A stretch of 64,000 nucleotides of DNA from a virus (Duplodnaviria > Caudoviricetes). Location of the stretch: IMG/VR virus record IMGVR_UViG_3300010355_001062, positions 11,321-75,320 of that record. One strand, written 5' to 3'. The translations under genes were made by a program, and so were the position numbers. Positions 22,509 to 47,710 of this stretch are shown here, piece after piece (positions within the stretch are counted from its first letter, which is position 1; each line of letters begins with the position of its first letter). The notes beneath the pieces are model-generated. The model was not told the origin of the DNA and searched no databases. It saw nothing but the letters and a program-made list of their open reading frames with translations.

Positions 22509-23018
22509 ATGGAAAACAATTTATTAAACAAAGCTTTTCCAGGAGCTAGGACTGGAAAATCCAAGACAGGAGCTAATTCCCGCAAGAAAGGTGTGGATAA
22601 TGAAAAAGTACTAGCTAAAAAATTAACTGAGTGGGTAGGTGTTAAATTCATGCGAACTCCAGGTAGTGGTAGCTTAGGTAAGATGGCACGTTTTATGAGC
22701 ATGGATATTATGATTACGGAGGGCCATTTCCCATTCGGTATAGAGACAAAACGTTACAAGGATATGGGGCGCACTAAGCTACTAAGAGTATGGGAAAAAG
22801 CTAAGACTGAGCACGAATTCCCGTTGCTTTTTGTAAAGCTAGATGGTATGCGCCATTGGTGGGTATACACTGATAAAGATTTAGGCTTGCCTATCGATCA
22901 TACGATAGCTGATTTGCATGGTTATTCTTCTAATGAACTGTTTAAAATCAATTATAATGACTTCACAACTTTTTGCTCAAATCTCTACGGTACTAGCGAG
23001 CACCGATATGGCGCTTGA
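22509..23018 (+). CDS. Holliday junction resolvase-like PD-(D/E)xK nuclease
   Basis: SRKKG...E, RTPGSG, D...F.FGIETKRY. Confidence 0.75.
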   Translation: MENNLLNKAFPGARTGKSKTGANSRKKGVDNEKVLAKKLTEWVGVKFMRTPGSGSLGKMARFMSMDIMITEGHFPFGIETKRYKDMGRTKLLRVWEKAKTEHEFPLLFVKLDGMRHWWVYTDKDLGLPIDHTIADLHGYSSNELFKINYNDFTTFCSNLYGTSEHRYGA

Positions 23019-23508
23019 TGCTGGTACGGTTAAAAGCATTAGCGAGGCATTGCTTAATCAAGAGCTGCTATCAAGTGCTTTGAAATTCTATGGCTTGAAG
23101 GAAATTCCAGGCCCAGCTTCCAGCCCCACAATCACTTCATGGTTGGCTAAATGGCTGAAAATAGCTAACGTCAAAGCTTCCAAAAACGACGACCAAACGG
23201 CTTGGTGTTCAGTTTTCGTGAATGAGATTGCTGAACAGTGTGATTGCACATTTAGCGGTAAGATCAACGCACGTTCCTGGCTTGATGTTGGCCAAGAAGT
23301 GGCTATGGACGAGGCAATGCCTGGTGATGTAGTTATCCTATGGCGTGTTAAACCTTCGAGCTGGGAAGGCCATGTGGGATTTTTCGTGCGCAAAGGCCCT
23401 GGCGTAGTATGGATGCTGGGTGGCAATCAGTCAAACCAGGTCAATATCATGTCTTTCAAAGACAGTCAGGTATTGGGCATTCGGCGCCTAGCTAAAATCG
23501 CTAAATAA
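23009..23508 (+). CDS. TIGR02594-like NlpC/P60 peptidoglycan hydrolase (probable endolysin)
   Basis: YGLKEIPG, DDQTAWCSVFV, ARSW, PGDVVILWR, GHVGFF, LGGNQSN; start moved to ATG 23009 (track: 22918). Confidence 0.85.
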
Positions 23509-23636
23509 TGTTCTGGTACGGCGTACTCACAGGAGTAGTGAGCACAGTCTTATTAGCCATCTTATTCTTATATGGGTTGCGCAAAGGATTAGTGCAGCTT
23601 ATATCTGATGCTATAGGAAGGTTGCTAGGACTATAA
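23508..23636 (+). CDS. 42-aa single-TM membrane peptide (holin/lysis accessory candidate)
   Basis: Not in track; TAATG overlap with endolysin; MFWYGVLTGVVSTVLLAILFLYGLRKGLVQLISDAIGRLLGL. Confidence 0.65.
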   Translation: MFWYGVLTGVVSTVLLAILFLYGLRKGLVQLISDAIGRLLGL

Positions 23637-23690: not shown

Positions 23691-24281
23691 TCATTCAATA
23701 CTTTGAATACCAGCTTCTTGAGCCTCTTTTGCTGGCACTAAACTTACCTGATCTAATATAAAGCTAGTTCTAGGGGTTATCAAACACATTAGAACATAGT
23801 TCACTCCGATCAGAATCTTGCCGAATAATGGAGCTACGCAGATATTCAACTCGGCGCAATTGGTTAGCGCGAACGCTACTATACCGAGTACGAATTGCAC
23901 CAGCAAGAATACTTGCGGATTTTTAACCCTGAATTTATCGAGTATACCCGCTAAGAGAGTTTGTAGCAAATCAGGCTTATCCCTAGTAGTAAGTGAATTA
24001 CCATAAGTGCCTTGGTTATAGGCCATGAGTACTGAAGCGGTCTTCGATGATAGCAGGACTACCAGAATATAGTTGGCTATTAGCAACACCTTACCGAATA
24101 GCGAATTGACGCAAACGCCTATTTCCTGACAGTTGGTAAGTGCATAAACAATTACGCCGAGAGCAAACTGTATCAACAGGAATAGTCCCGGATTGTTTAC
24201 TCTGAACTTGGAGAGAATACCGGCCAATAAAGTCTGAATCATATCAGGCTTTTGGTCTACGGGAGCGAGTGCCTTTGACAT
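23691..24281 (-). CDS. internally duplicated 4-TM membrane protein (holin-like)
   Basis: Two ~75 aa repeats KPD..QTLLAGIL.KFRV.NP..FLL.QF.LG...ALTNC....C. Confidence 0.65.
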   Translation of the reverse strand: MSKALAPVDQKPDMIQTLLAGILSKFRVNNPGLFLLIQFALGVIVYALTNCQEIGVCVNSLFGKVLLIANYILVVLLSSKTASVLMAYNQGTYGNSLTTRDKPDLLQTLLAGILDKFRVKNPQVFLLVQFVLGIVAFALTNCAELNICVAPLFGKILIGVNYVLMCLITPRTSFILDQVSLVPAKEAQEAGIQSIE

Positions 24282-24621
24282 TGCTTGTTTGTATTTTAGT
24301 ATTACTTAAATTATTTTCCAGAGCTTCTATACGTAACTCTAGCTCATCGATGTGCTTCAGTAGTCGTTCGTTAAAGAACTTTTCGGTTGCTAAAGCTTTT
24401 TCCAAAGATATTACATGCTCAGCTTTTGAAGCTTCGGATGCCTTTATCTTCATCAAGGTGAAGCGAGTATATACAGCGCCTACTGTTGTTATAATCGTAG
24501 CTACTCCGCTAACGATAACAGCGGTATCACTTACTAGTACTGATAGTATAATCATATCCAAGTAATTCAGGGATAAGCGCGCCACCAAACCCATAATATT
24601 CGTCACGACCTTTGATTCCAA
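24244..24621 (-). CDS. TM plus coiled-coil protein (holin/inner spanin candidate)
   Basis: Hydrophobic AVIVSGVATIITTVGAVY then heptad-rich segment and basic tail. Confidence 0.55.
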   Translation of the reverse strand: MESKVVTNIMGLVARLSLNYLDMIILSVLVSDTAVIVSGVATIITTVGAVYTRFTLMKIKASEASKAEHVISLEKALATEKFFNERLLKHIDELELRIEALENNLSNTKIQTSNVKGTRSRRPKA

Positions 24622-25549
24622 GGTCGAGTGTAGCTTCAGGCAGACGCTTATACAGTTCTTTGAAATCTTGTTTTACTGAACCGTATAGAGCAATTATAGC
24701 CCCTATGTGCGGTGTAGCCATTGAAGTACCTGAAAGTACCTCGAAACCTTCATTTGGGTATGTTGACAGAATACCGTCGCCTGGCGCAGCTACGAAAACC
24801 TGTGGCCCGAAAGTACTAAAAGCACTACGTATATTTCCCTTCGATAACGAAGCTACACCTAAAGTATACTTGGAACAGCCCGGGTAGTTAACGCCTCTGC
24901 GATAACTATTACCAGTAGCAGCTACTGAGATAATGCCTAGCTCGTGCGCTTGGCGAAGTAATTTATCCGTAGCTGCCCATACAGATGTCCCACCTCCCAA
25001 AGAAAAGGAAAATATTATACATTCTCCACGATCAATGTATTTTTTCGAGTCACTGATAGCCCAACTTATACCAGCATTGATACCGAATTGTGTACCCACA
25101 TTTTTATGAAGTACTTTTACAGGTATTACGCCGATCAAATTCTTTTCAACAAGTACTTTACATATACCTAGTTCGAAATCAGTTACTCCGATATAAGAAC
25201 CAGCTACATGTGTTCCGTGACCATCTACATCAGCAACACCGCCACCAGTAAAATCTTTACCCTTAAGCGCTTTCAAGCAACTATGTGAGTATTCGCCAGC
25301 TGTGTCGAAGATATAAACTTTAACTTTGTGTTTAGCTACTTTTTGCAAGTAACTCTCTACTTTATCGGCGCCTAGCGCTGTGTAAGCCCAATTACCCATT
25401 TCGCCCATAGGTATAAGCTGTGGCATGGTTTCTATTGGGTCAATTACCACATCGTATTTTTTCTCCATCAGGTCAGCTACTAATCGCTTACCTATTAGTT
25501 CAATACGATCTTTCCCCCTGAAAGGGGAATTCATAATATATTGGATCAT
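24527..25549 (-). CDS. subtilisin-like S8 serine protease
   Basis: FDTA (Asp), GHGTHVAG (His), AATGN, GTSMATP (Ser); no signal peptide seen. Confidence 0.92.
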   Translation of the reverse strand: MIQYIMNSPFRGKDRIELIGKRLVADLMEKKYDVVIDPIETMPQLIPMGEMGNWAYTALGADKVESYLQKVAKHKVKVYIFDTAGEYSHSCLKALKGKDFTGGGVADVDGHGTHVAGSYIGVTDFELGICKVLVEKNLIGVIPVKVLHKNVGTQFGINAGISWAISDSKKYIDRGECIIFSFSLGGGTSVWAATDKLLRQAHELGIISVAATGNSYRRGVNYPGCSKYTLGVASLSKGNIRSAFSTFGPQVFVAAPGDGILSTYPNEGFEVLSGTSMATPHIGAIIALYGSVKQDFKELYKRLPEATLDLGIKGRDEYYGFGGALIPELLGYDYTISTSK

Positions 25550-25571
25550 CGAGCCTAGGTTTATAGGTTTA

Positions 25572-25641
25572 GAGCCTAATCAATTTCTTTTCCCTTAATC
25601 AATAGGGAATAAGGATAAAGAGAATAAAATTGATTAGGCTC
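25572..25641. repeat. intergenic inverted-repeat element, GAGCCTAATC family
   Basis: Perfect 15-bp arms GAGCCTAATCAATTT / AAATTGATTAGGCTC. Confidence 0.8.
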
Positions 25642-25652
25642 GATTATATTTA

Positions 25653-26474
25653 TTAAAATTTATCAGCCATTATGGTTATTGCTTGAGAAGCAGGCCCACC
25701 ATATTGACCATTCGAGTTATTCTCACCGCCGTGCCATAACCAGATAGCTTTACAAGGTTGCCATTTGAATTCAACTGGAGGGCATTCTTGTACAAACAAC
25801 TGATTACCTTTCCTATCGGTAGCCCAAATAATCGGATGTATTTTATCCTTTTCTTTGCGTAGCCATTGTACATACAATCGGTAAACCACACGCACATCAA
25901 ATACAATAGGGCTGGAACGAATAAAAAATGCTTTATCGATATTCTGGTACACACAAAGCTCTAGCTTGAATGAGTCCTTGGCACATCGTCCTGCTACCAT
26001 CAAACCATTTTTATCGTTTGGCTCGAGTAACGGGCTTAGTCCGAATAGCTTATAGCTCCAGTCGTGAATATCCTGATCTTGAGTACCATCGGGCAGCATC
26101 CAGTCATACCAGCAGCTAGGCGTGAATTCGAAAGCGGCTCTTGGTGCTGATTTACCACCAAATAACCAATAAATAGAAGGAGCTACAGTTTTAGGTTTGA
26201 AATCATTGGCGCCTGGTTCACATACGTAAGTGGGTAGTTGCTTAGCAGTCTGCGCTCTGACCTGAGTATTACGTAAGTAATGTGGTACTATTGTGTCCTG
26301 AGTGAAAAAAGGCAGTACAGCAGGAGCTGTGTGGTACTCGGTCGTAGTAATATAATTACGAGATACACTACCACTGTAATCAGCAGTAGGGTGCATAGGA
26401 TGACGTCGAACTGTTCCACTAGCCTGGCTAAATAACTGCAGGCTCGAAAGCATAAATAGAATGAGTAAGCGCAT
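25653..26474 (-). CDS. signal-peptide protein of unknown function
   Basis: MRLLILFMLSSLQLFS-Q leader; beta-rich C-terminal domain. Confidence 0.7.
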   Translation of the reverse strand: MRLLILFMLSSLQLFSQASGTVRRHPMHPTADYSGSVSRNYITTTEYHTAPAVLPFFTQDTIVPHYLRNTQVRAQTAKQLPTYVCEPGANDFKPKTVAPSIYWLFGGKSAPRAAFEFTPSCWYDWMLPDGTQDQDIHDWSYKLFGLSPLLEPNDKNGLMVAGRCAKDSFKLELCVYQNIDKAFFIRSSPIVFDVRVVYRLYVQWLRKEKDKIHPIIWATDRKGNQLFVQECPPVEFKWQPCKAIWLWHGGENNSNGQYGGPASQAITIMADKF

Positions 26475-26492
26475 AGTTTATGATTTAGCGGG

Positions 26493-28703
26493 TTAATTAT
26501 CTTTCAAAAAGTAGTCCACAGTAATGCTGGCTGAGGTTAAGCAATTACAAGCTAGACTAAGCACCTGAATAGTAGCGCTGGTAGTTGACTTGGAAGTAAC
26601 TGCCACCACCACATATAACGAGCTTCTTGATATAGGTTGAAATGTATAGGAAACATCGGGCATAGTAGTAGCGAATGTCACAGTGGCGTTACCTCCACCA
26701 TCTACAGACACGCCAACTTCCCGACTTTCTTCTACCCTAACTGTTTCAAAAGCTGATGTAGCGGCGCTACCAGTACCAGTCCAAACTGGAATTGACTTTA
26801 CACCTGTTGTGTATGATGGATTAGTGGCAGGTAATGGGTAGCCATCATTAATAATTACACTTCCGGTAGAACGTAGGTTTATCTTACTATAATTACTAGA
26901 CCCTATACTTATTTCACCGATTTCATCAGCTAGAGAGTTTCTACCAATGGCAATGGTGTGATCTGTTGTTGCATCAGCATTGTGGCCCAACCCAATTGCG
27001 TATTGCCCGCTCGTATTAGAACTATAACCTAACGCCATCATAAAATTAGTCCCAGAAGAATTGGCTGTAGCGATTCCACCTATTGCTATATTACCTGTAC
27101 CTCCATTTGTACCGTTTAATGTACCGTTCAGAATTGTGTGGTAGTTATCAAAACTAGGGGCAGTAATACCAGAAGCCCCGTTTCCAGGGTTATACATTAA
27201 TAATGAGGTATTGGAACTTTTGAATATAGTTTTATTTAGGTAAGCGCTGTCATTAGTGATTCTAAAAACATTACCAGACCCATTTTGTATTCTAAAGCTT
27301 CCTCTAAAATAGCTAGAATCCCCTTGAGCATGGTGTACAAAACTAATACGTCCACCGTTAGGGTTTTCTGGTTTTTGCATTTGGAATTTACCATCAGTAA
27401 AAATGGTAAGATTATTGGCAGCTCCTCCGTTACGTCTATGAGTGAATGATGGTTGTGTAGCACTTACACCCATACGACTAAAGAAAACAAACTCCCCACC
27501 TCTTGTATAATTATGACCTCCCCGGAATTCATGGGATACCCCAATATCACTACTACCATGAACCAAATCTTCAATCCAGCCAAACGTGGGTACAGAGTCG
27601 TAGCGTAGTACCTGTGGCCAAATATACCCTATACGTGGTGTATATACCCCATGAGCAAAAGCAAATCCATTAGAATTTGTATAGGAACCCCATAAATTAC
27701 GAAAATCATACTCCCACCAAACTTTAGCTCCTTTAGTAGTATTAAACATACCTATAGAAGGAGCAAAGCCCCCATCATTATGTAAGTCTATCCCACGAGT
27801 ATTAGTGAAAGTAAGTCCTTCATTATTGGCGTCGTAATTAAGCTGCCCTGCTTGCATAGCTGCCCCTAAAGCAGATACAACATCTCCGGTACTTTTAATA
27901 CCATCTGGTATGTCACTAACTATGTCAACTTTCCAACGATGCTGATCATATACATTATCATATACAGCTTTAATTATAGCTTTTTGTCCTTTAGTAAGTG
28001 TATAGGTTGAGGCTATGTTACTATAAGTCCCATTACTTAACATTGAAAGCTGTACTGCGTTTGAATCAGCTTTCACATTATAAGTAACTCCTTCGTATTC
28101 TTCAACCGGAAAAGGTATTGATAAAAAAGCTACATTAGCTAAAGCGGAGCGGCTAATAGCTGCTATATCAATATTATTGAACTTAGCTGCTGGGTTAACT
28201 ATAGCTGCATCTACAATATAAGTACCGCCTGTTGCTTTTACAGTAGTATCCTTTTTAGAGACTTCAGCACTACCCAGCATACTTGTTAGTCGGTAATTGT
28301 AGACTTGCTGATCTGCTTGAACAAGCCCTGCAATGTATTGAGAATAACCATTAGCGCCTAAGCGATATATAGCACCAGTACCCGTAGGTACAGCTCCTAC
28401 ACCAGTGATTCCTACATTAGATACTTTAACAACAAATGATGGGGGAAATGCAGATACTATTTCAGTAATCGGCAAATGATAGCCGTAGCCACTATCGACA
28501 AAGAACAAATAATCTCCCACTGCAATAGAACCAGAGTCATAAAGCCCTGATTCATCGGTGAAAGTTCCAGATACTTGCCAGTACCCGGAACCACCACCTG
28601 ATTGTGCACCAGAATACTTACCCACTAGTGTGGTAGTATCCTGCATCTGAGCGTAAGCTATTCCACTAATAAGCAGAAGAGCTACTAACAGTAAATTTCT
28701 CAT
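26493..28703 (-). CDS. tail fibre/adhesin-like protein with signal peptide
   Basis: MRNLLLVALLLISGIAYA-Q; YadA-head-like repeats ALGYSSNTSGQYAIGLGHNADATTDHTIAIGRNS; Gly/Ser/Thr-rich. Confidence 0.7.
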   Translation of the reverse strand: MRNLLLVALLLISGIAYAQMQDTTTLVGKYSGAQSGGGSGYWQVSGTFTDESGLYDSGSIAVGDYLFFVDSGYGYHLPITEIVSAFPPSFVVKVSNVGITGVGAVPTGTGAIYRLGANGYSQYIAGLVQADQQVYNYRLTSMLGSAEVSKKDTTVKATGGTYIVDAAIVNPAAKFNNIDIAAISRSALANVAFLSIPFPVEEYEGVTYNVKADSNAVQLSMLSNGTYSNIASTYTLTKGQKAIIKAVYDNVYDQHRWKVDIVSDIPDGIKSTGDVVSALGAAMQAGQLNYDANNEGLTFTNTRGIDLHNDGGFAPSIGMFNTTKGAKVWWEYDFRNLWGSYTNSNGFAFAHGVYTPRIGYIWPQVLRYDSVPTFGWIEDLVHGSSDIGVSHEFRGGHNYTRGGEFVFFSRMGVSATQPSFTHRRNGGAANNLTIFTDGKFQMQKPENPNGGRISFVHHAQGDSSYFRGSFRIQNGSGNVFRITNDSAYLNKTIFKSSNTSLLMYNPGNGASGITAPSFDNYHTILNGTLNGTNGGTGNIAIGGIATANSSGTNFMMALGYSSNTSGQYAIGLGHNADATTDHTIAIGRNSLADEIGEISIGSSNYSKINLRSTGSVIINDGYPLPATNPSYTTGVKSIPVWTGTGSAATSAFETVRVEESREVGVSVDGGGNATVTFATTMPDVSYTFQPISRSSLYVVVAVTSKSTTSATIQVLSLACNCLTSASITVDYFLKDN

Positions 28704-28705
28704 AG

Positions 28706-30148
28706 TTAAAGGTTAGTGATTTTTAAATTGAAGCCTTGCGCGCCTACTGATAAGCCACCAACACGAATAGTTATAGCGTTACTACCAACGTCAGTCACCG
28801 ACACAGCAGGGTTGTTGTCTGTGTCCAGTGTAGCTGCATTAGTCAACGACAAAGCCCCAGAGTTAGGAATAGCCAATTTTTGCACAGTAGGCATCCTGAG
28901 ATCAGTTAAGCCGGTGTTGAATGGAGTACCCTCAAATCGAATACGAGTCCAGTTAGTCACACCACCAGCATCAGCCGATGATTGTATATCAGCAGCTACT
29001 AAGCGCCAGTCAGCAGCATGTACTGTAGTGCCAGCTGGTATAGTTACCGTAAGCTGATTGGAAGCATAAGACGCAGTGACACCCAGCTTACTAGCTGTGA
29101 TGAATAGATTAGAACCAGAATTAGCTCCTGAAACAGTTACTTGGTATGTGAACGGCCCAGCGATAGCTTGCACCACTGAATCAACAGGCAGGAATTTAGC
29201 TACGTGAGTTGAGCCATTCCATTCCCAATATGCTATTTCATCGACATTCAGTGTTAGCTCCTCTGCCGGCAGCTCATAGATATATACACCCGCTCCAGCA
29301 TTACCACCTATAGTAATATTACCGGCAGAGCCTACTTGTACTTCCGAGCCTAATCCAGCAGTATTATAAGCTTCTAAATGAGCATACATACCGCCTGGGC
29401 CGTAGGTCATAAGTACCTGAGCTATACCGCCACCACCGGGTAGCGTTGGTAATGCCGTAAGTGTGTGCTCGACTTGAGCCTGATCGGGCAGATCATTAAC
29501 GACTTTATTGTGGTATATGAATTCACCACCATTTGTCACAGAAGTCCATTGATTACCCCATCCATTATTATGCCTCCAATAGCCTGTGGATGTACCATCA
29601 TTGACTTGGCCAGGGTAAATATTATAGCGCATCACACTGGAATCCACGGCTATACTATCCGATAGGAATTGAATACCATCCGCCGGGAAATAGGTAGTTC
29701 CGCCACCTCCGATATTATCAATCAAGTCCCAAGCATACGCCAGATAGGTTTGCTGATCTGGATTAGTAAGACCACTAGCGAATGGGTTGATCAAATGATT
29801 TGGCCGTCCCTTAAAAATAGCTCCAGAGCCTGTAGGTACTGCTCCCACTCCTGTGATCCCTACATTAGAAACACGGACTGTGAATGACGGAGGTGTTGCA
29901 GATACAATTACAGTAATAGGCAAGAAATAGCCATAGCCGGCGTCGCCAAAGAATAGGATGTCGCCTACTTCGATCTGGCCGGAATCGTATAACCCGGACT
30001 CATCCGTGAATGTGCCAGTTACTGTCCAGTAGCCAGCACCACCGCCTGATTGGGAGCCGAAGAATTTCCCCACTAGAGCTGCAGTATCCTGCACCTGTGC
30101 AGTTAATGAGACACTAAGGAATAAGAATAACCACAATAGATTTTTCAT
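28706..30148 (-). CDS. fibre-like protein with signal peptide
   Basis: MKNLLWLFLFLSVSLTA-Q; N-domain shared with 26493-28703, C-domain shared with 30158-31894. Confidence 0.7.
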   Translation of the reverse strand: MKNLLWLFLFLSVSLTAQVQDTAALVGKFFGSQSGGGAGYWTVTGTFTDESGLYDSGQIEVGDILFFGDAGYGYFLPITVIVSATPPSFTVRVSNVGITGVGAVPTGSGAIFKGRPNHLINPFASGLTNPDQQTYLAYAWDLIDNIGGGGTTYFPADGIQFLSDSIAVDSSVMRYNIYPGQVNDGTSTGYWRHNNGWGNQWTSVTNGGEFIYHNKVVNDLPDQAQVEHTLTALPTLPGGGGIAQVLMTYGPGGMYAHLEAYNTAGLGSEVQVGSAGNITIGGNAGAGVYIYELPAEELTLNVDEIAYWEWNGSTHVAKFLPVDSVVQAIAGPFTYQVTVSGANSGSNLFITASKLGVTASYASNQLTVTIPAGTTVHAADWRLVAADIQSSADAGGVTNWTRIRFEGTPFNTGLTDLRMPTVQKLAIPNSGALSLTNAATLDTDNNPAVSVTDVGSNAITIRVGGLSVGAQGFNLKITNL

Positions 30149-30157
30149 AGTTGCTTA

Positions 30158-31894
30158 TTAAATGCCAGAGAATTTAAGGTGGTAACCCTGAGTACCAGCG
30201 GCTATACCGCCTATGCGCAATGTGATATTACCGGAACCATTAGCAACTGCCGATACGGCCGGGTTATTATCGTAATCAGCTGTAGCAGCATTGGTAAGCG
30301 ATAATGCTCCGGTAGCTGGTATAGCTACTTTCTGCACCTGTGGTATACGTATATCAGTAATGTCTGTGTTACCGCTAGTGCCTATGAACCGCACTAACAC
30401 CCAGTTAGTGGTTCCAGCCGCATCGGATGTAGCTTGCACGTCAGCAGCTACCAAACGCCAGTCAGCCGATACTACACGTACACCTGCGGGTATGGTTATA
30501 GTCAGCTGGTTGGAGCTATAAGAAGCTGTGACAGTAGTATTAGTGGCTACGATGCGTAGGAATGATCCAGTATTCGAACCAGTAATAGCTACGTTATACT
30601 CGCTTAGACCTGAGTTATCATCTACCCATTGTGGAACATTACTTACCCATTGTAGCTTGCGTGTGCCTACTCCCGGATTTGTATATGGTAAATACCACGC
30701 TGGATTACCAGTGCCACCGTTCAGATATAAGCCATTACCCTTTATGACCACTGCATCAGCTAGTGTAGCTACCGGACTCGCTTTACCCACAGCGAACCCT
30801 ATCTCAGAGGTAGTATTAGTGGGAATGTCCGAGCCTACGTAGCGTATATACATAGCGGCGGGTAGCTCTACAGTAGCTCCAGATACTAGAGCGTCACCAC
30901 GAACACTACCGACAATACTTCCAGCAGGGCTATTCGTAGGGCTGGCGTAAGTCCCTCCTATATGGCTAAAGCTTAGCTTGGGATCACCATCAGCGGCTCC
31001 TATAACAACTCCACCACTACCACTTGAGAATGTACGGCCTACTCCGAATGAGCCAGGGTCGTAAGTTTGTAGGTTGGGAGTATTTACAGTAGCCGACACG
31101 CCGATCATAGGATGATAATTAAGCGGATTCGCTACGCGTAGCACTACACCAGCAGCTGACGAGTCCAGCTTAAAATAATTACCTGATACGGGATCGTTAC
31201 TAGCATTGTAGTATACGATAGTTCGCGCTGTACCGCTAATAGTACCGCCGCCTCCACCGACTATGCTGGAATTTATGTTGTCTAGTACTGTTTGTAGGTT
31301 AGTAATATCTACGCCGCCTACTGTCGGGTCGTCAACTTTGCCTTGAGTAAAAGGCGACCATACCGCAGCTGAGCCATTCCAATTGGGAAACGAATTAACA
31401 GCTGCACCGGCTCCATCGAACGATATAGTAACAGTACTACCACTAGCTACAGTCTTTAACAAGCTACCTGTATTTACGGTTAAGCTACTGGTCACACTAC
31501 CTGTACCCGTATCACCATTAATAGTGAATGGGCCACCGCCTCCACCGCCTATGACTGGGCAATTACAGGTATTAATCACATTCAATACAGCACTTAAGCT
31601 ACCGTGCACAGTTTTGGTAGCATCAAATGTGATATTATCACCTGTATAGGATGTGAGTGTTACGAATGGGCCTTTTACAGTAGTGCGGAATGGCTTGTAA
31701 ATGAATTTCTTGCTATTCGGGCCCATGGTATACATGATACCATTACCGAATTCGGTTGATGCTAGGCCTGTCATGCAAGGTGCACATGCTTCTTTCGGTA
31801 GAGCAACGCAGCTATAACAATCCAAGCGAGCTGTCTGAGCTTCGCCTGTAATTAGTGTAAGCATGAAAAGCGCAAAGGCTATTAAATATTTCAT
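30158..31894 (-). CDS. fibre-like protein with signal peptide
   Basis: MKYLIAFALFMLTLITGEA-Q; Cys cluster, poly-Gly linkers. Confidence 0.7.
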   Translation of the reverse strand: MKYLIAFALFMLTLITGEAQTARLDCYSCVALPKEACAPCMTGLASTEFGNGIMYTMGPNSKKFIYKPFRTTVKGPFVTLTSYTGDNITFDATKTVHGSLSAVLNVINTCNCPVIGGGGGGPFTINGDTGTGSVTSSLTVNTGSLLKTVASGSTVTISFDGAGAAVNSFPNWNGSAAVWSPFTQGKVDDPTVGGVDITNLQTVLDNINSSIVGGGGGTISGTARTIVYYNASNDPVSGNYFKLDSSAAGVVLRVANPLNYHPMIGVSATVNTPNLQTYDPGSFGVGRTFSSGSGGVVIGAADGDPKLSFSHIGGTYASPTNSPAGSIVGSVRGDALVSGATVELPAAMYIRYVGSDIPTNTTSEIGFAVGKASPVATLADAVVIKGNGLYLNGGTGNPAWYLPYTNPGVGTRKLQWVSNVPQWVDDNSGLSEYNVAITGSNTGSFLRIVATNTTVTASYSSNQLTITIPAGVRVVSADWRLVAADVQATSDAAGTTNWVLVRFIGTSGNTDITDIRIPQVQKVAIPATGALSLTNAATADYDNNPAVSAVANGSGNITLRIGGIAAGTQGYHLKFSGI

Positions 31895-31920
31895 TGAGTT
31901 TGTGTTTTTAGCTAAATGAA

Positions 31921-31942
31921 GGGGCGCCAGTCGCGACGCCCC
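31921..31942 (-). terminator. GC hairpin after 31966 gene
   Basis: GGGGCG...CGCCCC. Confidence 0.45.
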
Positions 31943-31965
31943 CTAGTATAAAACCCGACTGTTCG

Positions 31966-32769
31966 TTAAGCGCAAACGAACTCCTCGCTTAGATCGCAAT
32001 ATACCATGAATACATCGTCGATAGCGGGCGGAGTCACTGTTTGCGTGTATACTTTGATGCTGTAACCTCCGGCAGCATTGGCAATGCTGACTTCTACCCT
32101 TTCATAGGTATAACCTGTCAAAGAGTCAAGCGCCGTAGCCATATCAGCTTGTAACTGAGTAGCCGTAGCCGCATCTGTCAGAGCTACACCGGTGTAATCG
32201 TATGGGTTATTAGCCAGAGCAGCAGTGTCACCATTATAAGTGACATCACCTACTACACCAGTCACCGTAGCCTTATACACCTGCAAAGCTACCAGTGTAC
32301 AGCAGCGTGTGGTACTAACAGTAGCTCCAGTGCTATAGGTGATAGACTTCAGCTTGGTCTTGCCGATGTGAGTGATAGCTAAAGTACCGCCACTGTAAGT
32401 GACGTCTACCTTGATGTCATACTCATAAAGCTCGAGAGCTTTCCAGAGGAACTTCTGCAATAAAGTAGGATTGGTAACAGGGATCAAGCCGAATGTGTCA
32501 GCGATAACTTTACCATTAGCCTGCTTGATCGGAGCAGTCGTAAGCACGGTGGTCAATGTGCCATCAGCTTGTTCGATAACGATACTAGCCACTAGCAAAG
32601 CGTTGCTTGTAGTGGCTGAGTATGTGTCCTCACAAGTGGGGATCGAGCTAGCTCCGCAACACCAATCGGCTGAGAGCTTAGCAAGATTACCAGGATTGGC
32701 GAGTGCGTTCCCACGCAGTCTACCAAATTGTTTTTTGTCCAGTAACATTGTTAAGTAAGTTGTGGCCAC
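31966..32769 (-). CDS. putative virion structural protein
   Basis: In virion module; Thr/Ala-rich; GC-richer codons like the capsid gene; 7 Cys. Confidence 0.55.
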   Translation of the reverse strand: MATTYLTMLLDKKQFGRLRGNALANPGNLAKLSADWCCGASSIPTCEDTYSATTSNALLVASIVIEQADGTLTTVLTTAPIKQANGKVIADTFGLIPVTNPTLLQKFLWKALELYEYDIKVDVTYSGGTLAITHIGKTKLKSITYSTGATVSTTRCCTLVALQVYKATVTGVVGDVTYNGDTAALANNPYDYTGVALTDAATATQLQADMATALDSLTGYTYERVEVSIANAAGGYSIKVYTQTVTPPAIDDVFMVYCDLSEEFVCA

Positions 32770-33101
32770 TTGCTAAGATCGCAAGTGACGATTTCACGAA
32801 TATAATTGGCATCGTCAGAACGTATCGCTTCGATAAGCTCCAACATAGTTACAGGCTCTCCCACATTTTCTTCGAGCCTAAGGAAAGATTTCAATTTCCC
32901 CTTAGTGTCCAATGGGCACCCACATATGGTGCAACCAGGCAGGACTAGAAGTGGGATAGGCTCCACTTTTCCGAAGGACGGGCACCCATGACATATGGTT
33001 TTCCTTTCTTCGAATTGTTCGTTAGTCACGAACTCGGAACCTTTGAATAAATGCTCTACTAATTTATCGGTTATCCAGCTCATGCGAATTCGTATATCCA
33101 A
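32751..33101 (-). CDS. small Cys-rich protein (DUF6171-like)
   Basis: RKTICHGC...GCTICGCPL..K...C..SKW. Confidence 0.6.
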   Translation of the reverse strand: MDIRIRMSWITDKLVEHLFKGSEFVTNEQFEERKTICHGCPSFGKVEPIPLLVLPGCTICGCPLDTKGKLKSFLRLEENVGEPVTMLELIEAIRSDDANYIREIVTCDLSKWPQLT

Positions 33102-33766
33102 CCACTTGCTTTAGTGCAACCACACTTAGTTTTTGCACAACCACAAGTATTGCAGGTGAATGCCATAAATCCAGCATAACAGGTGTTAGCTTTATTATCC
33201 TCCATAAATTCTACTAAAGCCTGCCATGAGAGCTGCACCATAGCAGCTGCTCCAGCCTGTAGTGAATTGTAGTCATGCTCATTAGCTGCGTCAAAATTAG
33301 AGGATTTATTCTTTATAAGTCCAGTGCCGCCTATCTTCGTATTAATGAAGGGTAAACGCCTGCGGACAGTAACCCAAGCTAAATAAGTAGCTAACACGGT
33401 ACAGAATAATACATTATAGCATTCCGTAGTAAATCTTTGCGCTAGCTCCCATTTTGTATGGTCGACAGGTAGGCTACCTACAGTTACTGCAATAGCTACG
33501 TATATAGTACCATCATAGACGACTTTATCGCCTATGTCATAAGCCATAGTATTAGAGTAGGCTCCAGCTGTAGGGTATTCAGCCAGATCATCCACCATAG
33601 CCTTATACAAGTCTCTACCTAAGCAATTGCGAGCTTCAGCAGTTTCGAATGTATAAAGCTGAGCAAAATCACATACCGGATGAGTCACTTCCAGATTTGC
33701 GTGCTTTATTACCAGGCTTGGAGTCATTAGTGTTTTTACCATCAGTAACTTCGAATAGTGGATCAA
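33080..33766 (-). CDS. probable head-tail adaptor with CBM5/12-like insertion
   Basis: Follows portal; insert YSNTMAYDIGDKVVYDGTIYVA...P.....W. Confidence 0.55.
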   Translation of the reverse strand: MIHYSKLLMVKTLMTPSLVIKHANLEVTHPVCDFAQLYTFETAEARNCLGRDLYKAMVDDLAEYPTAGAYSNTMAYDIGDKVVYDGTIYVAIAVTVGSLPVDHTKWELAQRFTTECYNVLFCTVLATYLAWVTVRRRLPFINTKIGGTGLIKNKSSNFDAANEHDYNSLQAGAAAMVQLSWQALVEFMEDNKANTCYAGFMAFTCNTCGCAKTKCGCTKASGWIYEFA

Positions 33767-35009
33767 GTACAGAAACTAGCCGAATGTCGTAAACATTCTT
33801 CCAGCCATATACTTTAAATATTTGGCGAACAATATCAGATGCTATATTACCCCACATTATCTGCGAAGGTTTTATGACACCTATATTTTTTATTTTCAGA
33901 ATTGACAAGTAGACATCACCACCGTTATTGGCTCCTACGGTCTCAAGACCCGATAATTGCCTATCCCAGTGATGTGCAGCATAAATGTAATCAGCAGCTC
34001 GTGATGTAGTAAACCGCAAATACTCGGAATCACGAGCTAGATTCAATTTCATTAATTGTGGAGGCTTACCACCGTGCGGGTATTGTACTCCAGATAATAC
34101 TTTAGCATTAGCGCCTTCAACAGTAGTGACTTTACGCATTTCGCGCATTTTCTCTTTGAATGCAGTTGTTCTAACTTTAGGGTCGTCTACCTGGCGCTCT
34201 GGTGGTGGCTCTTCGAAAGCCATTATCATTTGCGATATGAAATCGCTACCGGCTATGCGTACGGTTTGATCACCCGCAGCTACTTCAATAAACATCCAGA
34301 ATAAAGCCGATAGTGTGCGAGGTCTACCGTAATAACGTGAACCACGTGGCGAGCGTATATGCAGAATAGTTTGATAGCCATCCCTAATAGGCTGCCAGTT
34401 ATACTCACGCTCTGGCGTAGACACCCATATCAAACGAGGCGGCTTCTTTTTCCAGTAAGCCTCATCCCATTGCTCTGTGACTACACAAACTTTAGGGTCT
34501 TTCTTATTCTTGGGTTCTAGGAAAGCTACCTCGCGATAAGGTAGTACACTTATAAATACCTGGCGTACGCTATTTAGTTTTGTTACTTTGATCAATAGAT
34601 AAGCATTACCGCTATCGCGTAAAGAATCATCAAGCTGTTCTATTACTGATTGGTAATGTAAGGGTGAAAGGCCTAGTAATTGTAGTTGTTCTACGAAAAT
34701 GGCCTTTTCAGCATCCGTTATGGGCTTATCCTCGTCGGAATAACGTACGCCAGGTATACGCGGTGTAACATAATCAAAACCACCACCAAATACGTAAGAG
34801 TTGATGTCTTCTTTGCAAGCCTGATGGCTAGGGCTTAATTCAGATAAGTCGGCTATAACACGCAGCATACTATGGGAAGTAGCTTCACTCGTACCATAGT
34901 ACGGTATGATGCTATAATCCTTGAATAGCTGTACCATTTCGGCGGGATCATTGATCGACGCCGGTATCGGATTGTGTAGCTCTAATATCTGCTCGTTTGG
35001 CTGCATCAC
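33669..35009 (-). CDS. probable portal protein
   Basis: 446 aa; IIPYYG...LSELSPSHQAC...GGGF, GNAY and YYGRP motifs recalled from Bacteroidota phage portals. Confidence 0.65.
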   Translation of the reverse strand: MMQPNEQILELHNPIPASINDPAEMVQLFKDYSIIPYYGTSEATSHSMLRVIADLSELSPSHQACKEDINSYVFGGGFDYVTPRIPGVRYSDEDKPITDAEKAIFVEQLQLLGLSPLHYQSVIEQLDDSLRDSGNAYLLIKVTKLNSVRQVFISVLPYREVAFLEPKNKKDPKVCVVTEQWDEAYWKKKPPRLIWVSTPEREYNWQPIRDGYQTILHIRSPRGSRYYGRPRTLSALFWMFIEVAAGDQTVRIAGSDFISQMIMAFEEPPPERQVDDPKVRTTAFKEKMREMRKVTTVEGANAKVLSGVQYPHGGKPPQLMKLNLARDSEYLRFTTSRAADYIYAAHHWDRQLSGLETVGANNGGDVYLSILKIKNIGVIKPSQIMWGNIASDIVRQIFKVYGWKNVYDIRLVSVLDPLFEVTDGKNTNDSKPGNKARKSGSDSSGM

Positions 35010-35217
35010 TTTTACTTACTAGATGGGTTAAACCTTGCTCGAAGAGCATTTTGTATTCATCAGGTGTAGCTTCTGCTACAGTGTACTCGGCGGGTAGTTT
35101 AGGCGGCTGATTCTTCATCTGAATTGCTCCACCTATACCAACCCACTTCTGCGATTGCTCGATAAAGTACCGCCTTGGCGTTGATATAGCCAAGGCGGTT
35201 GGGCGATAGGTACTCAT
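34948..35217 (-). CDS. hypothetical virion-module protein
   Basis: 89 aa ORF coupled to the tail tube stop. Confidence 0.6.
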   Translation of the reverse strand: MSTYRPTALAISTPRRYFIEQSQKWVGIGGAIQMKNQPPKLPAEYTVAEATPDEYKMLFEQGLTHLVSKSDAAKRADIRATQSDTGVDQ

Positions 35218-35927
35218 TAGAGCGGTAGCGTGGCCAGGTTAATGTTAGCGAACATTGGTTCAGCGTCAGATTCACCCACCAAGATAACATCGTTACCTGG
35301 TTTCGTAGACCCCTTCAAGCCTGAACGGCTGATGTGAGTGCCGAAACGCAGAGTCTTTGTTTGCTTGATAAATTTAACGCCAGTCCATTCAACTCCTACC
35401 AAGCGTTGCTGGCAGTTATTGTCAATGATCAGTAAAACCAGGTTGCAACATTTAACACTCTTAGTGAACGCTAGACGCATGTCATTCGATGTACCTTCGA
35501 AGTTCAGTGCAATTTCCTGTACGTAGACATCCGTTTCTTCAGTCCACGTAAACGTGTACTGCGCGGTCTTGCGTTCAGGTGTGATAGGTTTCCACACTGC
35601 GCTTAGTAGCATAGTTGGAGTACCTATCAATTGCTGGGTTGTTGGGTTGAATTTAGTGGGATCAGCGGCTATGGTTACCCAATCTACATCGCCGAACTGG
35701 CACCAATAAGCTTCCTGTATGCCACCTGAGAGATTGCAGTCATCATTCGAGACTAGGGCTTGCAATTCACAAGTAAAAACACATAGGAACAAGGCATCCA
35801 GAGGACGTGTACCCGCTGATAATCCAGTTAGTGCCATAGCCAACATAGCCGTCGGATAGTCAGCCGTCAAAAAGCCACAAAATGTGACTAGTGCTAGGAC
35901 TATTTTAATTAGTTGCATTTGCTTCAA
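35217..35927 (-). CDS. probable major tail tube protein with hydrophobic N-terminal extension
   Basis: GGI..AYW, AQYTFTWTE, LIIDNN.QQRLVG tube-like pattern; position after capsid. Confidence 0.6.
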   Translation of the reverse strand: MKQMQLIKIVLALVTFCGFLTADYPTAMLAMALTGLSAGTRPLDALFLCVFTCELQALVSNDDCNLSGGIQEAYWCQFGDVDWVTIAADPTKFNPTTQQLIGTPTMLLSAVWKPITPERKTAQYTFTWTEETDVYVQEIALNFEGTSNDMRLAFTKSVKCCNLVLLIIDNNCQQRLVGVEWTGVKFIKQTKTLRFGTHISRSGLKGSTKPGNDVILVGESDAEPMFANINLATLPL

Positions 35928-35960
35928 TTAAAGGATGAATAATGCAGTCGGGTTTTACGT

Positions 35961-37151
35961 TTACTCGGTATACGCTTGAGCACCAGTTATGAAACGCAGA
36001 TCAGCAACGCCTGTAGCGAACATAGCCTGAGAGCTGATGTAGATTTTGCCCTGATCCTTGATGTCCATGCTTTTTTGGATCGTAACCGCGATCGGATCGT
36101 CCAGTGATGGAATATCGCCGAAATTGCCACCAAGGTTGATGTTGCGGCCCAATGTCAGGTAGGCGAAATGGTATTGCCCAGTCATGTACTGAGTATATTC
36201 ATTTGCCTGAGCTTGTGGTATGAGTGGTACATTGTCTACGTAGTATACGTAGATGGTGCTACCCTTCCAAGCAAATTCCTTACGAGTAAGGCGCGGGTTA
36301 ACACAGGTGATATTGATGCATTGCTCTCGGTATTGCTTAGCAGCCCGGTTGAGCATGCTAGGCGAGCAAACGATCATAGGGCTGGGTACAATGCCATTAA
36401 TCATGGTACCACCTAAGCCGCCTTCATCCAGAGCATTTTGTAGCGGGCCTTTCGCTGCTTCCTGCAACATATCCTTTACATCCACGATGTCACCTACGAA
36501 AGTGTTACCATCGAACATAGCGGCTGTGAAGAAATTGGGGATGTTCACATGGGAGTTACTGGGTTGAGCTCCTACAGTGCGCAGAAGTTCCAGCCAGCCT
36601 TTACATGTGCTGCTGGTGCGCACGATGAGGTCTTTAAGCTCATTGGTCACGCCGGCTTTCCAGGTAATATCGTTGAAATTGAACAATTGCCCAACAGCTA
36701 ACAAATTACGAGCGGCCATCGTGTAGTTAGTGGTAAGCACGGTGTACATTTGGTTGATGATGGCGATACCAGCCGCATCGAGCTTGCGTTGGCCATTATT
36801 CCAAGTCCATAGTACCTTCAAACAGTCATTCAGCAATTCGTCATCACACAAGCCCTCATTGAGCTTTGCGTAACACGGTGAGATTTCGGTGCGATCCATA
36901 CGGAGCGAGCCGGTTTCATCCCAACTACAGCTGGTATCAGGTTGCCACACAAAAGGGTGAGCATACATGCTGTGTAGCACGTATTTCAGCATCTTGTTGA
37001 ACGGCATCCAATTGAATATGCCGAAAGTTGCTTGGTAAAAATCCGAGTTGTCCCTGATCTCCTGGGCCATGAACATATTGAGCTCCCCTGTAGGAATCTC
37101 GATTGTGTTACGTGCACGAGTATAAAAGGGAGCGATACGCAATGGTTGCAT
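35961..37151 (-). CDS. probable major capsid protein
   Basis: 396 aa, directly after protease/scaffold, GC-richer codon use suggesting high expression. Confidence 0.7.
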   Translation of the reverse strand: MQPLRIAPFYTRARNTIEIPTGELNMFMAQEIRDNSDFYQATFGIFNWMPFNKMLKYVLHSMYAHPFVWQPDTSCSWDETGSLRMDRTEISPCYAKLNEGLCDDELLNDCLKVLWTWNNGQRKLDAAGIAIINQMYTVLTTNYTMAARNLLAVGQLFNFNDITWKAGVTNELKDLIVRTSSTCKGWLELLRTVGAQPSNSHVNIPNFFTAAMFDGNTFVGDIVDVKDMLQEAAKGPLQNALDEGGLGGTMINGIVPSPMIVCSPSMLNRAAKQYREQCINITCVNPRLTRKEFAWKGSTIYVYYVDNVPLIPQAQANEYTQYMTGQYHFAYLTLGRNINLGGNFGDIPSLDDPIAVTIQKSMDIKDQGKIYISSQAMFATGVADLRFITGAQAYTE

Positions 37152-37180
37152 TTGATTGAAGTATTAATGCCAGAAAAATA

Positions 37181-38533
37181 TTAAGCATTAACGCGTACGC
37201 GTTCGCCGAATGCTTTTTCTGTAACGGTTAAGTAATGATTGTTGTCGCCACCATCGCCGCTTCCCTCGCTATTAGCGCTTTCCAGCACTCTCTTCGAGAG
37301 ATTGGCTTGTGCTTCCTGTGAAGCAGCTAGCTGAGTTTCGAGAGCTGTCATGCGCTCCAGCAAGGCAGTATTGTCAACTACGGCCGGTTTCGTTTTCAAA
37401 GCTGCCTCAAGACGTGTAGTCATATCAGCTAGGCGTTCTTCCATCGGAGCCGTAGCAGTAGCCACAGCTGCGTTAACGCTCTCTTCGAGGCTAGCCATGC
37501 CCTCAAGCGCAGTAACAGCTTGTGCCATACCTTCATCGGTGCCTGGTACATTAATGCCCAGCACACGCAATAACTGGTTGCTGAACCTCTGTTGTAAAGT
37601 CATATCGTTTGTATTTAGGTTATTAAAGTCATCCTCGTCGAATGAATCGTCTTCGTTACGAGCGGCTAGTGCTGGAGAACTCGCACTAGAGCCGAGTAAC
37701 ATCGAGGTTATTTTAGTTACATCGCTATAACCATCAGCTAGCTCCATTGCCATTGCTGTATCTCCTATATATAATCGGCCCTTTAGTGTATCAAGGCTTA
37801 CTTTAGGGCGACTAGCTTTTACTTTCTGATGGAACACAGAAGCTAGGGCTGTAAGACGCTTTTCGTATAAATCCGTCTTACCATCGACTATTAATTGCCT
37901 GAATTCCTCATTTTTCTCTTGCGAATTACTAGCATAAACATCTAGCACATTCTCACGATATAACTTAAGCATTTCTTTATCCAAAGAAGCCATTGCGCCG
38001 ATAGAACCTAGGCTAGAGAACTCGCTTTGCATGAAGACTTTAGTAGCTGCGCTAGCCGTAAGGTAGGCAGCTGATGCAGCTAGATGCACTAATGCATATA
38101 CAGGTTTAGTAAGATTTTTGACAGTTTCGTGCATCAAAGCTCCGGCCAGGGCTTCGCCACCACCTGAATTAATTTCGATCAGGTGCCCTGCTACTTCTGG
38201 CATAGCATCAGCATTGCGCAAAAACGAGGATAAAGTCTTAGCTCCAAATGTATAGGAGCCGTCTTCCATGCGCATTACACCACTTAATGACAGATGGCTA
38301 ATTAATGAATTAGCTACTTCGGACTTACCATCAGAACGCGCTCCAGCCATATTGACAATAACTGGTCGCACGGCTTCACGAATAGTTGAAAACCCTAGAT
38401 CGGCATACGTTGCTCCTTTTTCTAGCAAATCAAGCTGTGCTAGATAAGCATTAAGCTGCTGTAGGCCCCATACGGGTTCTATTAGCCATTCAGCTGAAAG
38501 TAATAGCGCGTCTATCTGTCTGTTAGTAATCAT
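37181..38533 (-). CDS. S49/ClpP-like prohead protease fused to coiled-coil scaffold
   Basis: INSGGG, AASAAY, GSIG; C-terminal coiled coil. Confidence 0.85.
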   Translation of the reverse strand: MITNRQIDALLLSAEWLIEPVWGLQQLNAYLAQLDLLEKGATYADLGFSTIREAVRPVIVNMAGARSDGKSEVANSLISHLSLSGVMRMEDGSYTFGAKTLSSFLRNADAMPEVAGHLIEINSGGGEALAGALMHETVKNLTKPVYALVHLAASAAYLTASAATKVFMQSEFSSLGSIGAMASLDKEMLKLYRENVLDVYASNSQEKNEEFRQLIVDGKTDLYEKRLTALASVFHQKVKASRPKVSLDTLKGRLYIGDTAMAMELADGYSDVTKITSMLLGSSASSPALAARNEDDSFDEDDFNNLNTNDMTLQQRFSNQLLRVLGINVPGTDEGMAQAVTALEGMASLEESVNAAVATATAPMEERLADMTTRLEAALKTKPAVVDNTALLERMTALETQLAASQEAQANLSKRVLESANSEGSGDGGDNNHYLTVTEKAFGERVRVNA

Positions 38534-38557
38534 AAGTATGTATTATCGATCATAGTA

Positions 38558-38588
38558 CAATGATAGACAATATACCTGATAAATCCAA
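38558..38588 (-). promoter_or_regulatory. variant promoter for the head operon
   Basis: TTG-N20-TATCATTG, one mismatch to TAnnTTTG. Confidence 0.45.
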
Positions 38589-38620
38589 TAGACGCGATAT
38601 AATCTAGGGCTATTAGTAGC

Positions 38621-38869
38621 TCACAATTCATGCAGCTTCAATAATACTTTAATTTTAGCCGTACTAATGCCCACATACTCCGATATGCGTCTATGTGACC
38701 AATTCTTTCTACGATAATGTAGTATAACAGGATGTGCTAGGTAATCAGCCTGCATATCCTGAAAGAATAAATAAGTCTTTTCTGGTATATCTTCGAGTCG
38801 GTTAACTCTTATACCAGTTAACACAAAATAAGCCTCAAGGTATAAGGCTACTAGCTTTGCGGGTTCCAT
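38621..38869 (-). CDS. small protein with C-terminal HTH-like segment
   Basis: WSHRRISEYVGISTAKIK. Confidence 0.55.
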   Translation of the reverse strand: MEPAKLVALYLEAYFVLTGIRVNRLEDIPEKTYLFFQDMQADYLAHPVILHYRRKNWSHRRISEYVGISTAKIKVLLKLHEL

Positions 38870-38874
38870 ACTAT

Positions 38875-39063
38875 TTAATTTAATGAGTTAATCCACCATT
38901 GCATCCATGCTATATATGTAGCATTATCCAAGCAACTAGCGCAGCTGGCTACTCCAGTAGCTTGCAGAAATCGCTTAGCTTCTACGTGCTCTTCATTAAG
39001 CCATAATTGTAACAATTGCTCAGCTTGCTCAATAGTCAGCATGCTAAAATTATAAGTTTTCAT
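38875..39063 (-). CDS. hypothetical protein
   Basis: 62 aa, CASC motif, overlaps upstream stop. Confidence 0.55.
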   Translation of the reverse strand: MKTYNFSMLTIEQAEQLLQLWLNEEHVEAKRFLQATGVASCASCLDNATYIAWMQWWINSLN

Positions 39064-47238: not shown

Positions 47239-47256
47239 GTGAGCTATGTTATAGCT

Positions 47257-47288
47257 CAAAGATAGGAATTAATCCCGAACATTCCAAA
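47257..47288 (-). promoter_or_regulatory. Bacteroidota sigma-A type promoter upstream of tape measure gene
   Basis: TTTG-N20-TATCTTTG. Confidence 0.8.
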
Positions 47289-47428: not shown

Positions 47429-47710
47429 TTAGCGGCATGGCCAGATAGATAATAAAGCAGTCGCTCCAGATACTCGAATATCACTTAAATAAGTTAGCTC
47501 GCCGAATCGAGCTACGCTCAAGTAATAACTACCTTCATCGCTAGCTGCATGTAGCCGTTCTTTTTCGAGTGCTGTCAATTGCAATGTAGCTTGCTGCACA
47601 TTGCCTGATATATGCAAATATTCCACAGTATAGCACTGTCTTTGTGCTGACTGTGTAGGCTCAGAGCAAGCTACTAAGAATAGCAGTAAAATAAGAAGCA
47701 CAGGTTTCAT
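47429..47710 (-). CDS. lipoprotein
   Basis: MKPVLLILLLFLVAC lipobox. Confidence 0.75.
   Translation of the reverse strand: MKPVLLILLLFLVACSEPTQSAQRQCYTVEYLHISGNVQQATLQLTALEKERLHAASDEGSYYLSVARFGELTYLSDIRVSGATALLSIWPCR

Follow-up and report, generated by a model that had tools for sequence, protein, structure and literature searches.

A leader-bearing fibre- or spike-type gene module, predicted to be exported, in an uncultured Bacteroidota phage

Four consecutive late genes of an uncultured tailed phage (Duplodnaviria; Caudoviricetes) each encode a protein that begins with a Sec-type leader followed by Gln, and these proteins are very probably exported. They are probably fibre or spike proteins, and together they appear to be an exported fibre module that Bacteroidota phages pass on horizontally. 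The phage is represented by a 75,320-bp single-contig virus record (IMG/VR record IMGVR_UViG_3300010355_001062), and the window analysed here is a 64,000-nucleotide stretch of it (positions 11,321 to 75,320), whose genes lie almost all on the minus strand. The four genes, called A to D in transcription order, occupy positions 25653-31894 of the window; they and all other features below are on the minus strand unless stated otherwise. The accepted view is that tailed-phage virions assemble entirely in the cytoplasm. A Sec-routed fibre or spike family would mean either that a last assembly step follows the breach of the membrane or that these phages make a class of periplasmic receptor-active proteins. 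The explanation that we develop as a whole, an exported fibre module whose products join the virion, is one to which we give even chances.

Leaders and the glutamine that follows them

Gene A (578 aa, 30158-31894) starts with a leader of residues 1-19 (nt 31838-31894; MKYLIAFALFMLTLITGEA/QTAR, the slash marking the predicted cut) that precedes Gln20. The leader of gene B (480 aa, 28706-30148) spans residues 1-17 (nt 30098-30148; ...SVSLTA/QVQD) before Gln18, that of gene C (736 aa, 26493-28703) residues 1-18 (nt 28650-28703; ...SGIAYA/QMQD) before Gln19, and that of gene D (273 aa, 25653-26474) residues 1-16 (nt 26427-26474; ...SLQLFS/QASG) before Gln17. The predicted mature N-termini are Q-TARLDCYSCVALPK (A), Q-VQDTAALVGK (B), Q-MQDTTTLVGK (C) and Q-ASGTVR (D). 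In all four leaders, Lys or Arg at position 2 is accompanied by a stretch of 10-15 hydrophobic, uncharged residues (mean Kyte-Doolittle 2.15-2.66), and the residues at -1/-3 are small or otherwise allowed (GEA, LTA, AYA, LFS). Gln stands at +1 in each of A to D, and none has a lipobox Cys. The genes are spaced by just 2-18 nt, and there is no possible upstream start. A crude leader filter was passed by 14 of the 111 open reading frames (ORFs) of the genome, among which a small residue followed by Gln occurs only in A to D and in a cargo protein of the type 9 secretion system (T9SS) at 60744-62189. The original prediction of GEA-Q, LTA-Q, AYA-Q and LFS-Q leaders on four consecutive genes was right in sequence, coordinates and strand, and all four genes do bear leader and Gln. 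Its count of four, however, needs correction: B and C have leader and N-terminus in common (136 aa, 65% identity, E 6e-49) and are paralogues with the same leader, so the independent leaders number three. The chance of finding Gln after all three is p ~5e-5, given a proteome Gln frequency of 3.6%.

Signal peptidase I substrates with Gln at +1 define the Q-rule of Bacteroidota (Bochtler et al. 2018, PMC5837995), and the pyroglutamate (pyroGlu) cap stabilises exported proteins (Szczesniak et al. 2023, PMC10653852). A to D resemble the substrates described in these papers in the shortness of the leader, the small residues at -1/-3 and the Gln at +1. The protein at 60744-62189 carries, besides leader and Gln, a true T9SS type A C-terminal domain (TIGR04183, E 1.2e-10), and because the genome encodes such a protein, the host is a T9SS-bearing, Q-rule-using member of Bacteroidota.

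The leaders are conserved well beyond this phage, across a large family that is confined to phages. The domain directly behind the leader in B (N-domain, a beta-barrel; residues 18-125, 29774-30097) recurs in C (residues 19-126, 28326-28649; N-domain profile E 4e-47), and nearly all 39 homologues of B bear leader and Gln. A search with the N-domain profile (alignment A3) through 1.84 billion representative proteins matched at least 153 clusters, 92 of them at E <1e-10. The domain starts at residue 18-29 in ~90% of the clusters and at residue 4 in ~7%, which are leaderless. A small residue followed by Gln is present in 126 of 142 family representatives, with A, S or G at -1 in 125 of those 126 and a median leader length of 18. 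The leaderless variants begin, as MASVQY... or M(A)R[IV]FTGKC..., at what is elsewhere the mature N-terminus, and they lack the Gln; the Gln is therefore tied to the processing site of the leader, not to the domain. The N-domain tree, which is poorly resolved, requires five or more gains or losses of the leader. Judged from this sequence comparison, the leaders are under selection and not accidental. The earlier proposal of export and periplasmic maturation is thus strongly supported by the family-wide pattern of leader and Gln, the tie of Gln to the leader and a host that has both the Q-rule and a T9SS, and A to D are very probably Sec substrates.

O-glycosylation was considered as a reason for export and set aside. 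Sequons of the form D-(S/T)-(A/I/L/V/M/T) number 0 in A, 3 in B, 4 in C and 1 in D, none above composition-matched shuffles (P 0.23-1.0), and their density in A to D is similar to that in the rest of the proteome.

Domain architecture, probable fibre character and mobility of the module

A carries a CxxC-x7-CxxC motif right after the cleavage site (residues 21-45, 31759-31834) that is present in all A-type homologues (e.g. TTRLTCYNCQAIPKAYCAPC); it would form two disulfides if the protein is periplasmic and a zinc knuckle if it is cytoplasmic. A and D have 6 Cys each. The middle of A is Gly-rich and leads to a C-domain at residues 432-578 (30161-30601), whereas B has a variable middle, a beta-meander such as occurs in spikes, before its C-domain at residues 335-480 (28709-29146). 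The last 146 residues of A and B are alike (60% identity, E 3e-52), and no relationship was detected between A and C. C has ~five AIG-type, YadA-head-like 14-residue repeats at residues ~533-607 (26883-27107). These repeats, pointed out in the original prediction, are visible in the sequence, but their Pfam YadA_head match stays below the cut-off (22.9 bits against 25, E 1e-4); SadA and YadA in the PDB match at E 0.05-0.3, and the Pfam search found no YadA membrane-anchor domain in C. D consists, after its leader, of a low-complexity linker and a ConA-like lectin/glucanase jelly-roll core at residues ~73-273 (25656-26258).

Neither A, B nor D belongs to a family in Pfam, PHROGs or NCBIfam, and PDB sequence searches with the module proteins were empty or marginal. 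The AF2 model of B has a predicted local distance difference test score (pLDDT) of 61 overall and of 70-87 in the N- and C-domains, the former a small beta-barrel and the latter all-beta. Its BFVD matches are tail or fibre proteins (E 3e-6 to 5e-4, TM-score below 0.25), and the PDB yielded nothing for B at E up to 1e-3. The nearest Atlas clusters of A are all viral, of Mtd_N/PTL_trimer/S74 type, with scores below 0.9. The core of D matches the folds of a GH43 C-domain, a baseplate protein of mycobacteriophage Douge and the receptor-binding domain of TM4 gp23 (VIA Z ~10, root-mean-square deviation 3.3-3.6, 152-165 residues), as well as G7C gp63.1 (PDB 4qnl; Z 9.0); this lectin fold is common to phage receptor-binding proteins and to many non-phage lectins and glycoside hydrolases. 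Polysaccharide-lyase-like features occur among the Atlas neighbours of D.

The build is modular: the N-domain is common to B, C and the matched clusters, while the distal cargo varies. Pfam domains on 40 N-domain members include GDSL/SGNH (4), SASA (3), BNR (2-3, sialidase-like), GH32/GH43/GH130, a DUF1565 beta-helix, Peptidase_S74 and Laminin_G_3, a set of cargo typical of tailspikes. On crAss-like contigs, leaderless N-domain paralogues, including fibres with an S74 chaperone, lie in the fibre region by the ring and muzzle genes, and leader-bearing paralogues adjoin them. Because of this domain content and genomic context, A to D are probably of fibre or spike nature. Their block sits after the head and portal genes and ahead of an S8 protease and the lysis genes. 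The 'fibre position' assigned to them earlier is borne out by a layout of portal, fibres and lysis as in crAss001, but not by the tail genes, as the block does not follow the tape-measure and tail-tip genes.

Comparison by BLASTP of the window ORFs with four unrelated contigs, the P22-portal-like L005, the crAss-like L001 and L008, and L009, returned homologues of A, B, C, D and the S8 protease only. We regard A to D as a mobile module because they and the S8 protease alone are common to these otherwise unrelated phages. D, for example, is 45% identical to a leader-bearing 223-aa protein of L001. The module also lies between portal or head genes and lysis genes in L003, L006, L005, L001, L008, L010 and L012. 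In the syntenic relatives L003 and L006, five to six consecutive leader-Gln genes occupy the same site and are followed by the S8 and lysis genes, and relatives devote 6-10 kb of the late operon to the module. Profile scans found a fixed order, C-domain gene, N-domain gene(s), small leader-bearing partner(s) and lysis genes, at eight of the eight loci with enough sequence. In four lineages the C-domain gene encodes a short leaderless protein with a lineage-specific N-terminus (L001, 231 aa; L008, 293 aa; L010, 299 aa; L012, 327 aa), and a leader-bearing N-domain spike of 447-1867 aa directly follows it. B and the 294-aa P0012 comprise little beyond N-domain and C-domain, which makes B a natural N+C 'connector'.

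Five consecutive leader-Gln proteins (926, 1063, 1118, 582 and 448 aa) are encoded on a 69-kb contig (L011:623-13126), with the N-domain in three and PTL_trimer in the last; a glycosyltransferase and a methyltransferase come next. Small leader-Gln proteins of 149-181 aa follow the exported spikes at L003:16087-16536, L008:3206-3670 and L001:12918-13463, and those of at least L003 and L008 have a motif in common (...GNNYQITTAEM / GDNYITVNELG). These small proteins could be periplasmic fibre chaperones; they are absent from the window.

Cultured relatives were sought among ~50,700 GenBank phage records by megablast (positions 25000-45000) and by tblastn with B, C, D, the capsid candidate and two remote members of the family, with no useful result, and pattern scans of IMG/VR came up empty. 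The N-domain profile had no confirmed relative in 185,579 prokaryote species genomes, and hence no prophage or cellular copies were found there.

Possible attachment to virions and competing explanations

Late in infection, the host Sec machinery would translocate A to D, signal peptidase I would cut the leaders and a host glutaminyl cyclase would cap the new N-termini to pyroglutamate. Folding and oligomerisation would follow in the periplasm, a compartment that permits disulfides. The C-domain would serve as a platform and the N-domain as a plug docking on it, with B as connector and A as base, and the lineage-specific N-terminal part of A would contact the particle. Opening of the inner membrane by the holin would let cytoplasm and periplasm mix within a still-intact outer membrane, and the pre-assembled fibres would join finished particles as receptor-binding or receptor-modifying appendages. 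The plugging of the N-domain into the C-domain is a tentative proposal drawn from co-occurrence and gene order; in several lineages, the docking partners would be made in different compartments.

Attachment is plausible because leaderless adaptor-like C-domain proteins precede leader-bearing spikes in four lineages, and we favour it because leader-bearing proteins in a like position are annotated as virion parts in a cultured Bacteroidota siphovirus. In Cellulophaga phage phi10:1 (KC821618), gp091-gp094 are annotated 'structural protein; experimental MS/MS proteomics' (MS, mass spectrometry), and these four proteins and the pectate lyase gp095 after them each start with a 16-20 aa leader and then Gln. 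Their genes lie between tail genes and the genes of a holin-like protein and a GH108 endolysin, as A to D do with respect to their own lysis genes. Proteins gp082 and gp083 of phi46:3 (KC821622) resemble the leader-bearing proteins of phi10:1; neither record mentions the leaders. By this analogy, we lean slightly towards attachment of A to D to virions at lysis. Extended to a large number of Bacteroidota tailed phages, the scheme would be a two-compartment build in which cytoplasmic particles, in some lineages with a leaderless C-domain adaptor, receive pyroGlu-capped spikes and fibres folded in the periplasm. These would plug in, by a dedicated joint of N-domain and C-domain, only at holin opening, and the module encoding them would pass among sipho-, podo- and crAss-like phages. 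This generalisation is offered tentatively; if true, it would add a general, previously undescribed final step to tailed-phage morphogenesis.

Several points weigh against attachment. To our knowledge, the addition of exported proteins to the virion has not been established for any tailed phage. N-domain identity remains at 45-57% between sipho-, podo- and crAss-like backbones with no further protein in common, a constancy that would be odd for direct docking on lineage-specific virion parts and that fits docking on a co-transferred C-domain or the binding of a host molecule. The putative base protein A is itself among the exported proteins in this lineage. The Cellulophaga proteins are analogous and not homologous to A to D, as the N, C and D profiles match nothing there, and MS on purified particles can detect contaminants. 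The structure models are mediocre (pLDDT 57-61) and depict monomers of probable trimers, and the fold matches for B are weak. No homologue of A to D was found in the ~50,700 GenBank phage records.

In a second explanation, the main rival and possible though on the whole unlikely, A to D are exported but remain free. They would then be fibre-derived soluble receptor-binding or receptor-destroying proteins, either active in the periplasm on newly made glycans of the envelope or set free by lysis. They could serve to remove or cover receptors of the dying cell and its debris, or to loosen capsule or matrix for the escape of progeny. Sec export parts A to D from cytoplasmic particle assembly, the cargo of the N-domain family consists of carbohydrate esterases and hydrolases, and D has a lectin/glycanase fold. 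The same phage exports other proteins that are not part of the virion (T9SS cargo, lipoproteins), the module shifts among unrelated virion types without any common structural partner, and the true receptor-binding protein could be the 935-aa protein of the tail tip. Q-rule proteins of Porphyromonas gingivalis prophages, products of genes of unknown function, have likewise been read as host-envelope modifiers (PMC10367356). Free proteins, however, fit poorly with an N-domain that is kept right behind the leader in ~90% of clusters and that also heads true fibres of S74 type; free enzymes could dispense with a particle-binding domain, and its decay would be the expected outcome. Every relative gives up 6-10 kb of late-operon space to the module, leader-bearing proteins at the equivalent position are the MS-annotated virion components of phi10:1, and late expression is ill-suited to superinfection exclusion.

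It is improbable that A to D, together with the S8 protease and the downstream membrane proteins, constitute an envelope-disruption or exit module that breaches outer membrane, S-layer or capsule in place of spanins. The block always adjoins lysis genes, the S8 protease co-travels with it and is itself exported in L005, and no canonical spanin pair was recognised. Fibre genes beside lysis genes are nevertheless a common layout (crAss001 gp22-26, then gp27-30), the modular diversity and lectin/esterase cargo suit receptor recognition better than generic membrane disruption, and the S8 gene is missing from the stretches read of L001, L008, L010 and L012.

Surface display of A to D by infected cells or vesicles, as adhesins or decoys delivered by T9SS, lipoprotein export or autotransport, is very improbable, and the corresponding suggestion of the original prediction finds no support. 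It could draw on a host with a T9SS, a phage that encodes one T9SS cargo protein, the YadA-like repeats of C and the conservation of the extreme C-terminal domain in A and B, which is superficially like a sorting tag in its logic. A to D nevertheless lack TIGR04183 or any other T9SS tag (NCBIfam, E ≤1; Pfam, E ≤0.01), a lipobox Cys and a YadA anchor or other membrane anchor. The shared C-domain was rejected as a T9SS tag on the NCBIfam result, on its hhalign probability of 0.2% against the phage's own T9SS tag and on its presence in proteins that have no leader and so cannot be T9SS substrates.

Very improbable, finally, is the idea that the leaders are no functional export signals (wrong starts, uncleaved membrane anchors, or leaders bypassed by cytoplasmic internal-start isoforms that are the real fibres): the codons after the cleavage-site Gln, GTG in B (30091-30096) and ATG in C (28641-28646), make leaderless isoforms conceivable, but such dual starts are limited to the present phage, six relatives having GTT or GTA, which cannot initiate; there is no room for other starts; the physicochemistry of the leader and the Gln at +1 are kept while the sequence drifts; and natural leaderless variants lack the Gln, as expected if it is selected only as a post-cleavage N-terminus.

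Genomic surroundings and comparison with known systems

In transcription order, the late genes run from small genes through the tape measure, two tail-tip-position genes, an S49 protease gene, a capsid-position gene, a portal-like gene, DUF6712 and two small genes to A to D; past these come the S8 protease, two membrane proteins, an opposite-strand lysozyme-like gene and replication genes. The tape-measure gene (43261-47259; PhageMin_Tail E 1.5e-25) follows the gene of a predicted 93-aa lipoprotein just upstream (47429-47710; ...LFLVAC/SEP, cut as LVAC/S); another lipobox ORF lies ~9.2-9.5 kb ahead of the window start, i.e. outside the window. Searches with the two tail-tip-position proteins, of 466 aa (41864-43264) and 935 aa (39060-41867), yielded no assignment. 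The S49 head protease (37181-38533) is followed by the capsid-position gene. A 236-aa protein with a hydrophobic, membrane-like N-terminus, encoded at 35217-35927 between the capsid-position and portal-like genes, has no family match and is kept at the same site in L003 and L006 (236 and 241 aa). The portal-like gene (33669-35009) has a weak portal match. A 267-aa Cys-rich protein without a leader (31966-32769) is encoded directly upstream of A and is kept there in L003 and L006.

Downstream of D, the subtilisin-like S8 protease (340 aa, 24527-25549; Peptidase_S8 E 1e-29, with DTAG, HGTH and GTSMATP motifs) has no leader. It accompanies the module as a conserved neighbour in sipho-like and podo-like phages, and its orthologue in L005 (L005:15388-17040) bears its own leader and Gln (...NIGSG/QSPG). 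The lysis region encodes a 125-aa membrane protein with a transmembrane segment and a coiled coil (24244-24621) and a 196-aa membrane protein (23691-24281) that consists of two tandem copies of a ~98-aa holin-like unit (PD[ML][IL]QTLLAGIL.KFRV.NP...). In L003 and L006, the lysis-region membrane proteins occur as single 76-78 and 90-98 aa versions, the latter a single-gene form of the holin-like unit. Position and topology suggest a lysis role for the two membrane proteins at 23691-24621. On the plus strand, 22918-23636 holds a candidate endolysin (Lysozyme/CHAP-like, 196-aa ORF; phrog_1259 tail-lysozyme region, E 4e-28) and a 42-aa transmembrane protein.

A full-text search of the literature found the Q-rule papers and the P. 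gingivalis prophage report, none of which describes Sec-exported tail fibres. New here are the grammar of N-domain and C-domain, the pairs of leaderless adaptor and exported spike, and the lack of sequon enrichment. Whether the proteins end up on virions or act in the periplasm, their export would change the annotation, expression (periplasmic, with a pyroGlu N-terminus) and engineering of receptor-binding proteins in these abundant phages of gut, soil, sludge and ocean. The combination of leader, Gln and N-domain offers a simple sequence rule for finding such proteins.

Set against the P. gingivalis prophages, the Q-rule applies here to a whole fibre- or spike-type module in the late operon of a lytic-looking phage. 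Bacteroides phage crAss001 (MH675552) has the same layout of portal, fibres and lysis, with tailspikes or fibres at gp22-gp26 and glycan-active spike domains; unlike A to D, none of its gp20-gp26 has a leader, and they are classical, cytoplasmically assembled fibres. As the crAss001 spikes are leaderless, not all Bacteroidota phages export their fibres.

Branched tailspike systems, such as G7C gp66/gp63.1 and those of CBA120, have a conserved N-terminal docking module, attach via an adaptor and not directly to the baseplate, include SGNH esterase spikes and assemble entirely in the cytoplasm. Several spikes with a common N-terminal module and SGNH esterases are found both there and in the present family, in which docking is suggested by co-occurrence and gene order. 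Trimeric autotransporter adhesins of the YadA family, in turn, are Sec-exported fibrous adhesins with 14-residue head repeats that fold outside the cytoplasm. C differs from them in its sub-threshold YadA_head match and the lack of an anchor domain, and it is encoded by a phage and headed by a phage-specific N-domain.

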